Positions 38,955 through 49,132 of a DNA stretch of 64,000 nt are shown here, in pieces (within the stretch, counting starts at the first letter, position 1; every line of letters starts with the position of its first letter). The stretch comes from Eledone cirrhosa (Eukaryota), in assembly GCA_964016885.1 (NCBI GenBank), contig CAXHJY010001374.1, positions 9,766 through 73,765 of the forward strand, given 5' to 3'. The notes beneath the pieces were generated by a model. That model was not told where the DNA came from. It was given only the letters and a program-made list of their open reading frames with translations, and made no database searches. The position numbers and the translations under genes were made by a program.

Positions 38955-39730
38955 ATATGTAAGTATGTATGTACACGTACATACATATATGTATACAGAC
39001 GTACAGTAGCATGCATATATATATCTATATATATATATATATATATATATATATATATATATATATATATATATATATATATATATATATATATATATAT
39101 ATATATATATATATATATATATATATATATATATATATATATATATACAGGTACACATACATATATGTACGTATCAGTTTAGCGGGCGTTTTTTATAACG
39201 CCCGCTTTGTCCGTTTGTAAACAAACTGACAGCCTGAATTTATGCCATACGGTGTTAAGGCAACCACGTCACCTTTTTGTTCAACAGACACAAGAACGAT
39301 GTACTAGTTTCAAGCTTCTTAGCTATCATCACCACCGTATACCCTTCTGCCAGATGGTTGAACGTTCGAAAGTATATACATTCCTTATGAAAATTAACGG
39401 CTGAGCAGCCTAATTTGCATATCGAGTGAGTTCAGTAGGCCAGGCGCACCGAAAACGATAAGTTGTAATAAAATGAAAACCAAATTTCATTTCTCACTCT
39501 TAGTACGGCACTTTCGGACTTCCACCAGAGTTTCCTCTGGCTTCGTCCCGACCGGGCGTGGATCGCCATCTTTCGGGTCCGCGGCCGCCTGCTACACCTG
39601 AGTTCGTAGCGCGCCGCGCCGACGGTCCGAAAGCCGCCATATGTATGTACGTATACATACATACTTACATTTAAGTGAGTGCCGTACTAAGAGTGAGAAA
39701 TGAAATTTCGTTTTCATTTTATTACAACTT
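38955..39730 (-). mobile_element. Family G repeat cluster (tandem around a TA tract, plus inverted partial copy)
   Basis: Pieces at 38955-39015(-), 39147-39512(-) and 39639-39730(+). HHR at ~39296-39338 has a GTGATGA core. Confidence 0.75.
39513..39638 (-). rRNA. 28S rRNA fragment (pseudogenic, ~125 bp)
   Basis: Minus strand GGACCCGAAAGATGG..A...CGAAGCCAGAGGAAACTCTGGTGGA.GTCCG, the conserved LSU segment after the D3 expansion. Confidence 0.88.
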
Positions 39731-40199
39731 ATATATATATGAATATATATATATCTATATGAATATATATATATGAATATATATATATATATATATATAT
39801 ATATATATATATATATATATATATATATATATATATATATATATATATATATATATATATGAATATATATATATATATATATATATATATATATATATGA
39901 ATATATATATAATATATATATATATATATATATATATATATATATATATATATATATATATATATATATATATATATATATGAATATATACATATATATA
40001 TGAATATATATATTGTTATACTTGGGGAGGGTCATATTTGTGTAATATTGCCAGAATAAATAACAGAACACACTCACTGTTTGGTTGGTTTTCGCTTCTC
40101 GCTTCTGTGTCTTTTTTATCGGTAATCTAACTTACTCGGTCCTCAATGTTGCCATTGACTGAGATATATATATGAATATATATATATATATATAGAGAG

Positions 40200-42385
40200 A
40201 GAGAGAAATTATAGAAATTACATGAAACAAAGTTCTGTTTAAATCATTTATTCGCTTACAATTGTTTCTTCCAAACCGAGGTTTGGTGTCTTCGGAGCAA
40301 TTTTTCAATGATTTTTTTATATACTTGACCTCTTTTCCAACACAAGAGACATATAGAAACATATGTATATATTGACGCACTGTGGGTTGACATCCATTAT
40401 AATAAATCAGAGAGTTCAAATCCCGCTGAGGTTGACTTTGGATTTCATCCTTACGGGGTCGATAAAATAAAGTACCAGTAATGCACTGGGTAATTGCTGG
40501 CCTTGTGCCTAAAGTAGAAACAATTATAATAATATAGCATGGCAATTTACATACAAAGATTAAAGTCATATTAAAGGACAAAATTAAAGTTAAAATACAA
40601 CATTGGCAGCTTACAAAGATAAAGCAAGAGGATAGTTTGAGGTAGTTAGTGTATGCAATATTTACACGTGGGGCATGCACGTGTGTCTAATGTATATAAG
40701 ATTATAGTGCGGCAGGGTGTTATATGTAATACAAGCAGTTTAAGCGGGCAATCAAGAGTATTATGGGGGGGTTGTAATGTTAAAGTATTTTTATAGATAT
40801 ATATGTATGATATAGAAGCCTGCGTGTAGAGAAATATAAAAAATATTAAAAGTATTAAAAGTGAGAAGCATAACAATACACCACCATTTTCACAATCCAG
40901 GAAACGCAATTTATAGATTATATGTCCCTTACACAATCCACGATGATTCAACATTGGATGCCTGATGAACCACGTTATAACAACACAGCTTGTTGTTCTC
41001 TAAATCAATTCTATAGAGCAGGTTGCTTTTTGTTGCGAGAAATTGACATCGTATTATTTTCCGGAAGTGTGTGTGTGATTAAGGGGTGTTAATGCGTAAT
41101 TAACTAGCTGATTTCTATAACTAAATTTATTATCCTAATGTACACCTAGAGGTGGTGACGGGTTCAAGTCTGACATTGTTAATATTGGTTTTAAAGTTTT
41201 CGAAGGAGTTCGGAAGCGGTGCAGGCAAGACGCGAACACTTCTGATTTTTTATTAAGGAGGTTATGGTTAGAGAAGATAATAGTATGGGTCTCTAGTAGA
41301 CAGAGGTTACACAATTTATTAGGTGGTTTGTACGATGTCGCGTTAGCTATCACTTCCCATTTAAATGTATATGATTTATTTTTAGTTTTTAGATAGTGTA
41401 TGTAGCTAGATAGTGAAGTGGAGTTGCCTAGACTGTGTTTTTTGAAAGAGTGGAGGTGCGAATTGTATCTGGTCTTGAAGCAGTTTGAAGTAGAGCCTAT
41501 ATATGTTTCAGAAGAGTTGCTAGTTGTGACGGTGCATGAGTATATGATATCCTTGATTAAGCATTTTTTATCTAAAGGGCAGGTTCTATTTGATCTACAG
41601 TTACAATTATTCTGGGTGTTAGTCTGCCGGTTATTATGTTGTGTAGAAGTCTGGATGGTAGCTATAGGATTATGGTTATGGGGGTTGTCGTTCCCAGCGT
41701 TATTGCTTACACTAGTGGTATTACTATTATTTCTATTGTTATTAGGGTTAGTTGATATAAGGTTATTTTGAAGGTTTATCGTCTGTTGTGATTTAGTTTG
41801 TTGGAAGTAAGAATTAATTTTTCTTCTATTGCTACTAGCTATGTGGTATGCTATGTTAGGCGTAGTAGAGTAGGAGATTTTAATAGTGTTTTTGTTTAAA
41901 AGGCTATGGTACTTGTGGCCAGATGGGAAGTTTTTATCTAGTAGTGAGAAGAAAGCCCTAGGTAGGTTGGTAGAGACGTTTAGATTGAAAGGAGGGTTGA
42001 AAATGTATTATTTCTTCTTCTATTTTTGTTTTTTATGTCCGGTGAGTTGTTTCCTTTTATGGTACTATGGTAATTTCTGTGGTGTGTGTTACTTCTGTTG
42101 GCATCCTCCGTATTTGTGTGTGTGTGGTTGCGATTCTTATTACTAAATTTCCTCATGGACATGTTGTGCGAGATAATGTTGTAGCTATGTGTTTTTGTAG
42201 GTAGGAACTCGATCTCTATATTATGGCCTGATCTAGCTAATGCCTGATTATAATATTACGAGTTTTTGCTAAATATGTTTACGTCATAGGATAGATTAGA
42301 GATTCTATTGGATACTCCCTTAGAGATAGAGTTTAATATTGACCTAGGGTGGTTAGACTTGGTATCTACGTAAATGAGTTTGTGT
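40200..42385 (-). mobile_element. Decayed Naiad-like PLE 3' part; UTR interrupted by a SINE (40410-40525)
   Basis: Minus frames give SNHP, NPPFNLNVST, CNCRSNRTCPL, YIGSTSNCFKTRYNSH, CNLC and LNKKSEVFASCLH. The CCGAAGA HHR is at 40252-40300. Confidence 0.8.
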
Positions 42386-42394
42386 GTGAATGAA

Positions 42395-42680
42395 GTAATT
42401 CTGTTGGAAAAATCCAGGAAAAAAGAGTGCTCTATGTAGGTAACAGAGCTTAATAGTTATGTAATAATAAACATAAGGCAATTATTTCATTTACCAGTGG
42501 TTTCTTAAAAGCAAAAACAAATTTCAATCATCAGAATGAAAAACAATCATCAGAATGAAAAAAACCTAGTGTATTTATTGGCGTTAGATTTTAAGATCAA
42601 AAATATAATCTATATGAAAGTGAGGCTGGAAAAGGAAGAAGGAAAGGAAAAATAAAAACACACATGCAAAGACAAACACA
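42395..42680 (-). repeat. Dispersed repeat (probable PLE 3' UTR)
   Basis: Reverse-complement homolog of ~51340-51600. Confidence 0.55.
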
Positions 42681-47600: not shown

Positions 47601-48530
47601 ACATATACCTACATAAATATACACACATAAAACACATATACACACAAACATATATATATACATATATATATATATATATATATATATATATATATATATA
47701 TATACACACACACATACACATATACACACATACAAACAAATATATACACATACAAGTAAATAGGTACTCAATAAATATACGCATATACGCAGGCACATAA
47801 AGACACCTCTACAGGCAGAAAATGTAGATACGAAAGAGGTACTCACATAACCATAGTGGCCGTATTTCAGGTTGAGGAGGGGTGGGGGTAGGGTGGGGAG
47901 GAGGTATAGGGGCCAATAGGGGGAGGTCGTTTTTAGCCATCGGGCTTTAACACTGGCTTAAAGTGTTTGAATGTTGCAAAGTTCTTGTGCATGCAGTTCG
48001 GGCAGTGTTCAGAGAGTTTGTTCAGTAGCGGGCCCTTGGCGAATAAAATTTCGTAGCTCTCTGAAATACAAATGTCGCAGCCCTTGTGTCCTCCGTTGTA
48101 AGAGCGCGCTTTCTGGAGTATTTTCCAATTAAGCGTGAAGGGGGTGGAGTTCCTTTTGTGGTCCCAAACGTAGGAGACGAGTGTTGTTTGATTTAATTTA
48201 TCCGGTCTCCTGAAGGAGTGGGTATGGGCATACCAACGGGTCTTAAAGTTGTTGGAGGTCATGCCGATGTAAGTTTTTTTGCAATCCTCGGTGCCCGAGA
48301 TGAAATTGCATTTGTATACGATGTCATTTGTGAGGCATTTGTTTTCTAGTGGGCATGCTTCCTTATTTAGGCAATTACATAGAGCCCCAGTCCGGGGATT
48401 GGTTTCGGAGGTGGTTGGCTTATTTAGTTTAGAGTTGTGGTTGGCTATATTCCTAGCTAGGTTAGGTGTGGTGGAGTAAGACAGTCTTATAGTGTTCTTA
48501 TTAAAGATGGTGTAGTACCTATGTTGTATT
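44661..48530 (-). mobile_element. Naiad-like PLE 3' part: GIY-YIG plus long microsatellite-filled 3' UTR ending in an HHR and tail
   Basis: 47933-48530 reads CNCLNKEACPL, YIGMTSNNFKTRW, CDIC and LNKLSEHCPNCMH. HHR at ~44745-44793(-). Terminus GATTCAACCCGGAATAACG abuts (TA)n. Linkage across the microsatellite is inferred. Confidence 0.7.
45300..47760. repeat. Compound (CA)/(TA) microsatellite
   Basis: Seen directly. Confidence 0.95.
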
Positions 48531-48554
48531 TAAAAGATAAGATAACTTACCTAG

Positions 48555-48711
48555 AAAACACCGCAAAATTGCAGAGGAGGAATAGACATAGGCAGATTAG
48601 CTGGTACAACCCTCCCTTCAATAGAGAGGTATCTACTCCGATAGCTAGGATTTTCTTCACTTTACTGAAATTACACTTCCCCATACAACATAGGTACTAC
48701 ACCATCTTTAA
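48555..48711 (+). mobile_element. Inverted upstream segment of the same Naiad-like ORF
   Basis: RQISWYNPPFNREVST...HRYYTIFN; ~29 bp overlap in reverse with 48501-48529. Confidence 0.8.
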
Positions 48712-49132
48712 CGGCTCAGCCGTTAATTTTCATAAGGAAAGTATATACTTTCGAACGTTGAACCATCTGGCAGAAGGGTATACGGTGGTGATGATAGCTA
48801 ACAAGCTTGAAACTAGTAGATCGTTCCTGTGTCAGTGTTGAACAAAAAGCTGACGTGGTTGCATTAACACCGTACGGCATAATTCAGGCTGTCAGTTTGT
48901 TTACAAACGGACAAAGCGGGCGTTATAATAAATGTCCGCTAAACTGATACGTATATATATATGTATGTGTACCTGCATATATATATATATATATATATAT
49001 ATATATATATATATATATATATATATATATATATATATATATATATATATATATATATATATATATATATATATATATGCATGCTACTGTACGTCTGTAT
49101 ACATATTTGTATGTCCGTATACATACATACTT
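48710..49132 (+). mobile_element. Family G repeat: 3' part, (TA)n, then a new 5' start
   Basis: HHR at 48782-48826: ACGGTG-GTGATGA-TAGCTAACAAGCTT-GAAACTAGTA-GATCGT. Confidence 0.75.

Follow-up and report, generated by a model that had tools for sequence, protein, structure and literature searches.

A non-coding repeat of about 423 nt, designated family G, was found to be joined to itself through TA microsatellites in a 64,000-nt stretch of Eledone cirrhosa DNA (assembly GCA_964016885.1, contig CAXHJY010001374.1, positions 9,766 to 73,765 of the forward strand; hereafter, the window), which is TA-rich animal DNA packed with retroelement fragments. At three of the five G ends, the 3' end of the unit is followed by (TA)n and then by a G start in the same sense, with intervening tracts of 102 nt (copy E), 132 nt (copy B) and 263 nt (copy A, a compound tract). 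The best reading of this G-G junction is the tail already known from Penelope-like elements (PLEs), stretched here over an internal (UA)n linker. G itself is probably a non-autonomous, retrozyme-like PLE derivative whose template was a tandem or circular RNA, with (UA)n between the units and internal starts of reverse transcription (RT).

Self-comparison of the window yielded five G bodies (A to E) and one inverted arm. Copies B, C, D and E are mutually 92-96% identical (96% for B-D and B-C, 93% for B-E), and copy A represents a diverged subfamily, about 78% identical to B, D and E. The sole complete unit is D (44188-44610, plus strand, 423 nt), flanked by (TA)11 on the left and TATG(TA)23 on the right and devoid of open reading frames (ORFs) of at least 100 aa; the GC content of G is 0.41-0.45. 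Copy C (43168-43308, plus strand) comprises the last 141 nt of the unit, followed by TATG(TA)11 without a tail. In copy E, on the plus strand, a 5'-truncated body (48714-48975) is followed by CA(TA)50 (48976-49077) and by a tail of unit positions 1-56 (49078-49133), beyond which lies (TA)12. On the minus strand, the body of copy B (39148-39513), 5'-truncated near unit position 69, continues into (TA)61 GA (TA)4 (39016-39147) and a tail of unit positions 1-59 (38957-39015), followed by a compound (TA)n/TTCA array. Copy A, also on the minus strand, is preceded by (TA)30 and consists of a body (19532-19872), a compound tract in which an 18-nt interruption occurs twice (19269-19531), and a tail of about 60 nt (19208-19268) that gives way to (TA)19. 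The original prediction had located such junctions at 48978-49077 (+) and 39147-39015 (-), with a diverged equivalent at 19530-19265 (-) and a TA length that differed each time, all of which is borne out by copies E, B and A, respectively. Between C and D, a long inverted repeat of another family (43335-44096) has one end inside the TA tract of C.

The family is also abundant in restriction site-associated DNA (RAD) reads. At a threshold of at least 85%, 53,375 of 12,467,656 reads (0.43%) and 48,086 of 12,785,554 reads (0.38%) from two runs of organism A fell on D, a reduced-representation figure and not a copy number. For these comparisons, reads and contigs of four of 24 listed runs were aligned to D without its long TA flanks; positions 44182-44256 were masked as repeat and joints falling there were dropped, and the joints, loose ends and variants considered are among those listed for the alignments. 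Opposite-strand RAD joints were left unused, because a number of them coincide with restriction sites and could have arisen by ligation. At the G 3' end (44527-44616), pairs with the first mate on the minus strand were in roughly 10- to 35-fold excess in runs X22 and X23, possibly reflecting a restriction site in the tail of many copies; this excess was not counted as evidence.

The original prediction placed the TA tract inside a tandem or circular unit. The tract does appear to lie in the copied template of some copies, because three loci that differ in their flanks show the junction in the same register, and because the A tail matches its own subfamily and decayed-repeat flanks are common to the copies; circularity and full tandem units found no such support. 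The post-tract G piece is only 59 nt in B, 56 nt in E and about 60 nt in A before TA resumes. The tails of B and E stop 3 nt apart, at unrelated loci, and terminate at the 3' foot of an AC-rich hairpin; they are alike at 52 of 55 positions, each with its own variants and its own flank. The A tail agrees with the A body at 45 of 49 positions, compared with 71-75% identity to B and D, and it ends at the same homologous unit position, about 120, as the inverted arm of B. In one contig of organism B, the sequence turns into AT repeats at unit position 118. When flank labels were shuffled over 59 TA arrays (200,000 shuffles), three or more such junctions arose with P = 0.0003, a post hoc value that ignores local clustering of a family. 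In a control with 58 hand-set arrays, 24 were flanked on both sides by sequence that recurs in the window, and nine arrays were marked as permuted by the script, namely the three G junctions, four judged to be low-complexity artefacts and two joining different families.

The sequence bordering the tract points in the same direction. Purine-pyrimidine alternation reaches 0.89 in the 58 nt that follow the tract and 0.92 in the 26 nt that precede it, versus 0.53 in the core (0 and 2 of 20,000 shuffles, respectively), and these flanks are common to tailed and tail-less copies. Their composition suggests a decayed TA repeat fixed in the family, in which case the tract would long have been part of the unit. 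In addition, 2,633 X23 reads run past the end of the unit into a TA-like consensus with interruptions at fixed places (agreement 0.92), a suggestive result that refers to reads and not to loci.

On sequence grounds, G carries a minimal type I hammerhead motif, for which self-cleavage is predicted. A pattern scan gave 10 hammerhead matches in the window versus 0.07 per shuffled window, one of them, with a single core mismatch, in B (39332-39302) on the G sense strand; Rfam over copy B did not detect the hammerhead, the motif coming from the pattern scan. By alignment, the same motif was found in A (core at 19696), D and E (core from 48788, predicted cut after 48818). It is built of a 6-bp stem I, a 4-bp stem II closed by a tetraloop, and a single-pair stem III with a tetraloop cap that is palindromic, and stems I and II pair in the aligned copies. 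According to the available text of PMC7229834, salamander (amphibian) type I hammerheads likewise have a one-pair stem III with a palindromic tetraloop and show better cleavage when dimeric, and PLEs contain minimal type I variants. A complete core is retained in the family as a whole, since CUGACGA is the reading of the loose-end consensus (5,659 and 5,413 reads, agreement 0.92, together with 98 contigs), and 11 nt missing from D are present in 4,747 + 2,219 X22 reads. None of 100 shuffles folded as well as the core of D (z -4.6). D also has a GC-rich 10-bp hairpin (44555-44580, plus strand) some 30 nt short of the end of the unit; in subfamily A, 4 of the 10 pairs of this hairpin are changed on both sides. 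A head derived from an RNA polymerase III transcript, as in a short interspersed element of tRNA, 5S or 7SL type, was not found in G: ARAGORN found no tRNA gene, and no tRNA-, 5S- or 7SL-type Rfam match was obtained over copy B at E up to 10.

The G copies show the structural marks of PLE insertions. Four of the five bodies lack 5' sequence to varying extents and retain the 3' end, partial tandems are present at A, B and E, and the B insertion has an inverted 5' arm (39639-39729, plus strand; unit positions about 30-121) that terminates in TA and is identical to the B body at 51 of 52 positions over their overlap. As far as the accessible parts of PMC8557442 go, PLE insertions are 5'-truncated, include partial tandems and inverted 5' copies and often have a tail of 30-40 bp, and Hydra elements contain hammerheads and use (TA)n as insertion site. 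Between the B body and its inverted arm lies a GC-rich insert (39516-39638, minus strand), fused to B in the same sense, 33 nt of which (39548-39516) match eukaryotic large subunit rRNA (28S) in the sense of the ribozyme (E=4e-4, below the Rfam gathering score). Judging from its sequence, this segment is probably an rRNA-retroelement chimera, and we read the fusion as a putative template switch.

A PLE fragment abuts copy E. This Hydra-clade fragment (47705-48711, minus strand) comprises an RT thumb, a CxCX5C linker and a weakly matching GIY-YIG domain, its linker and endonuclease carrying the CxCX5C, CxxC..E and CxH marks of the clade. It ends in an inverted arm, with a 29-nt overlap (48501-48529 is the reverse complement of 48683-48711) resembling twin priming, and the 5' end of the E body is joined to this arm, at the outer edge of the fragment, via a 9-bp fold-back. 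The G copy at E may have been co-inserted with the fragment or may have landed later. Two further fragments with Hydra motifs, at 13464 and 41135, bring the ORF fragments of this type in the window to three, and a protein search with the neighbouring PLE ORF gave one match among 120 candidates. The fragment beside E is a candidate for the kind of helper that G would need.

Taken together, these features can be accommodated in the following scheme. Genomic (TA)n would be nicked by the TA-targeting protein of a PLE, the Hydra clade being its most likely source, and reverse transcription would begin inside the G RNA at one of about three sites. Starts in the (UA)n linker would give tail-less copies such as C and D; starts 56-59 nt beyond the linker, where the AC-rich hairpin has its 3' foot, would give B and E; and starts at unit position about 120 would give the A tail and the inverted arm of B. 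Any start past the linker would copy the TA tract of the template into the new site, adding 100-260 nt of fresh TA to existing tracts. Because such starts lie past the tract, the template RNA would have to read end-(UA)n-start, from which a tandem or circular RNA is inferred. With 2-5 nt common to each G terminus and the TA target, priming aided by annealing is conceivable. A precedent comes from in vitro work on an anole PLE, described in the available portion of PMC11167929, in which RT begins internally, at an AC-rich stem-loop downstream of the hammerhead and at two nearby sites whose spacing equals the tail; uncleaved RNA is the main substrate, and C3G abolishes cleavage, not insertion. 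More speculatively, G might exist as a circular ribozyme RNA whose (UA)n linker serves as a built-in guide for homing and priming, a microsatellite counterpart of the telomeric repeats of Athena, and retrozymes would then act as a genome-wide engine of microsatellite elongation. This is a tentative idea that we consider possible and not likely. If true, each pass of a PLE RT over the linker would write at least 100 nt of new pure TA, and hammerhead retrozymes would elongate microsatellites genome-wide in TA-rich animal genomes.

Several observations weigh against G as a PLE derivative copied from (UA)n-linked RNA. No full G-(TA)n-G dimer occurs at any of the five loci in the window, and across the tract after C and D (two of five ends) the neighbour is a different, unrelated family. 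The mismatch of the A tail to the A body at 4 of 49 sites is more than two passes over a single circle would produce in any but an old copy. The hammerhead is damaged in all four local copies that span it, by C3G in B and E, by a CUGUCGA core in A and by the 11-nt deletion in D, and the hairpin covariation comes from four sequences, with all double changes contributed by copy A. The G tail, that is, the tract plus 56-59 nt, measures 158 nt or longer in three of five copies, far above the 30-40 bp of described PLEs. Moreover, the anole PLE starts at RNA without homology to its target, according to the portion of PMC11167929 available, whereas the G ends share nucleotides with TA. Finally, no autonomous PLE with a G-like pseudo-long terminal repeat (pLTR) was found in the 64-kb window, and it is from the neighbourhood only that a helper is deduced; an 11-nt motif did not occur in a metadata table accompanying PMC8557442.

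A further difficulty leads to the first of the alternatives. Copies B and E share both the tail and C3G, which the read consensus lacks, so that their tails may trace to one master locus. One or a few such loci, where a G lay by chance upstream of a TA tract and a second G, would produce read-through transcripts carrying the tract along by 3' transduction, and the tract would not be a regular part of the unit; the tail-less copies C and D fit this model. We nevertheless regard it as unlikely, given that the diverged subfamily A (78% identical) is arranged likewise, that the decayed-TA flanks of the tract are fixed whether or not a copy has a tail, and that B and E are not each other's closest relatives. 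Quite improbable, in our judgement, is that TA is only the target, with no RNA spanning the tract and the junctions produced by a later G inserting beside an earlier copy or by ectopic recombination between TA tracts. The abundance and local density of G, the two ends that adjoin other TA-targeting families and the imperfect identity between A tail and A body are all compatible with such independent events. They would not readily account for post-tract pieces that are 5'-only fragments, whereas G bodies retain their 3' ends, nor for the near-coincident end-points of B and E at unrelated loci, nor for the same orientation in three of three cases with matching subfamily, nor for the shuffle result (P=3e-4).

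The possibility that G is a DNA element of the DINE-1/MINE-2/pearl kind (Helitron-like, or like a miniature inverted-repeat transposable element), with subterminal inverted repeats and a 3' hairpin and with junctions formed as rolling-circle head-to-tail products, was considered very improbable. A stem of about 26 bp can form between the termini of D, a GC hairpin is conserved near the 3' end, and elements of this type carry microsatellites (PMC3879986, in the parts available). The end pairing, though, may follow from the purine-pyrimidine alternation of both ends; the flanks are (TA)n without an AA target duplication, D has no internal core repeats and no tetranucleotide microsatellite is present; and the conserved hammerhead and the rRNA fusion indicate an RNA intermediate. 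Assembly misjoins are the least credible explanation and would be highly surprising: assembly is difficult across long TA runs, but each tail has its own variants and its own flank, and the end-points agree between loci.

Comparison with known systems, based on the accessible text of the papers cited, places G close to two groups. Like non-LTR retrozymes (PMC7229834; bioRxiv 10.64898/2026.07.22.740005), it is a non-coding unit within the 150-450 nt range with GC below 50% and a type I hammerhead, and mobilisation by PLEs has been proposed for those elements; the preprint argues that animal retrozymes are non-autonomous PLE derivatives. G differs from them in that none of the five loci has two or more consecutive full units, in that its hammerhead is minimal (PLE-type) and not canonical, and in the long, variable (TA)n between units, the word 'microsatellite' being absent from PMC7229834. 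Similarities with the pLTR/tail of endonuclease-containing (EN+) PLEs, especially of the Hydra clade (PMC8557442; PMC11167929), comprise the hammerhead, 5' truncation, partial tandem, inverted arm, a tail beyond the usual end, the (TA)n insertion bias and an AC-rich hairpin at the inferred start site. Unlike these PLEs, G has no ORF, its tail spans a 100-260 nt microsatellite plus 56-60 nt, compared with 30-40 bp, and its ends have short microhomology to the target. From its sequence, G would work like a PLE pLTR or a non-LTR retrozyme; it is not filed as a retrozyme proper, because two consecutive full units are not found here and cleavage is predicted only.

The resemblance to other elements is more limited. 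The endonuclease-lacking PLEs Athena, Coprina and Terminon (PMC8557442, available text) also have a simple repeat matching the target beside a hammerhead, whereas the (TA)n of G is not telomeric, its internal insertion would need the endonuclease of an EN+ helper, and it encodes nothing. DINE-1, mini-me, MINE-2 and pearl/DTC84 are, like G, short non-autonomous elements that move a microsatellite; in contrast to G, they are DNA elements with AA duplications and core repeats, for which the accessible part of PMC3879986 mentions no ribozyme, and their microsatellite lies between the termini and not, as in G, at a target-like junction.

The hammerhead, the tail, the TA bias and the retrozyme-PLE link have all been described before, and the distinctive trait of G appears, from the sequence, to be a long target-matching microsatellite inside the copied template. 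In the open-access literature, a long internal TA linker was not found described for any PLE derivative or retrozyme; repeat libraries (Repbase, Dfam) or sequence supplements may hold the family. The term 'hammerhead' is absent from the available text of the Octopus vulgaris repeat paper (PMC13282606). How PLEs form tandem and inverted insertions and why microsatellites are favoured are open questions, according to the excerpted text of PMC8557442. G offers a 423-nt, high-copy, non-coding substrate with the target repeat inside the copied template and tail end-points that mark candidate start sites, and it makes testable whether TA targeting is aided by RNA-DNA annealing and whether microsatellites are lengthened by such elements.

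The original prediction further proposed that these elements both home to and seed TA microsatellites and so help to explain the huge arrays. The longest three of the 128 pure TA runs of at least 10 TA units in the window lie in G-internal tracts (122 nt in B, 100 nt in E and 96 nt in A), as expected if G lays down fresh TA. All G 3' termini in the window sit in TA-rich sequence, and for this reason de novo seeding was not seen. Accordingly, the part of the proposal concerning homing to TA and the carriage and lengthening of existing TA stands, the lengthening being probable, whereas the birth of microsatellites at naive sites does not. The contribution to the huge arrays was not upheld either: the G-internal tracts amount to 497 of 12,788 TA-block bases (3.9%), and G does not border the arrays at 8.8-9.7, 12.2-12.9, 15.9-18.3, 30.0-34.7 and 45.5-47.7 kb, which display interruption motifs of their own.

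Other searches gave no usable candidates. Pattern scans of metagenome and viral contigs returned no matches, and an 18-mer search returned 28 loci, the best of which matched G over 28 nt, and was rejected as chance. The 150 listed of 346 whole-window Rfam matches were all microRNA families over TA/CA repeats, below gathering scores, and were dismissed as compositional. A bacterial promoter scan (1 match vs 1.7 expected) is irrelevant here.

Additional repeats in the window are of related interest. At 4606-5940, a 310-bp hammerhead unit forms a tandem (2.2 copies) and an inverted tandem (2.1 copies) that are 99% identical and bordered by TA on either outer side. The element contains four hammerheads with an exact core and the same architecture as that of G; its arms end about 40 nt apart in the unit, one of them at a short internal (TA)4 patch. 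It has the classic form of a retrozyme/pLTR, canonical tail included, and provides a natural control for G. Exact-core hammerhead motifs were also present in other repeats, at 28838-28876, 34384-34330 and 42534-42492. In the region 9650-15940, a single PLE family is present as two insertions in inverted arrangement, with a Hydra-type ORF at 13464-14375 and hammerheads at 9752-9703 and 11762-11811; the TA arrays around these insertions all carry a single-T interruption and may be tied to that family rather than to G. Two ORFs of non-LTR retrotransposons with RVT_1 domains were detected on the minus strand, at 59073-63929 (974 aa, E=5e-26) and 25588-26772 (394 aa, E=3e-17); the frames upstream of the former are presumably endonuclease-like and ORF1-like.

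Regarding the TA arrays themselves, an interruption block occurs twice within each of the tracts 19269-19531 and 58249-58568, which suggests template slippage or re-priming during synthesis. The 2.2-kb TA/CA array at 45522-47704 shows a higher-order repeat of about 135-167 nt near the end that touches the Hydra-clade PLE fragment. Finally, two repeat families that are neighbours at 32176-32890, where a TA array (32352-32765) separates them, are also neighbours at 40213-40527, but in the opposite order.

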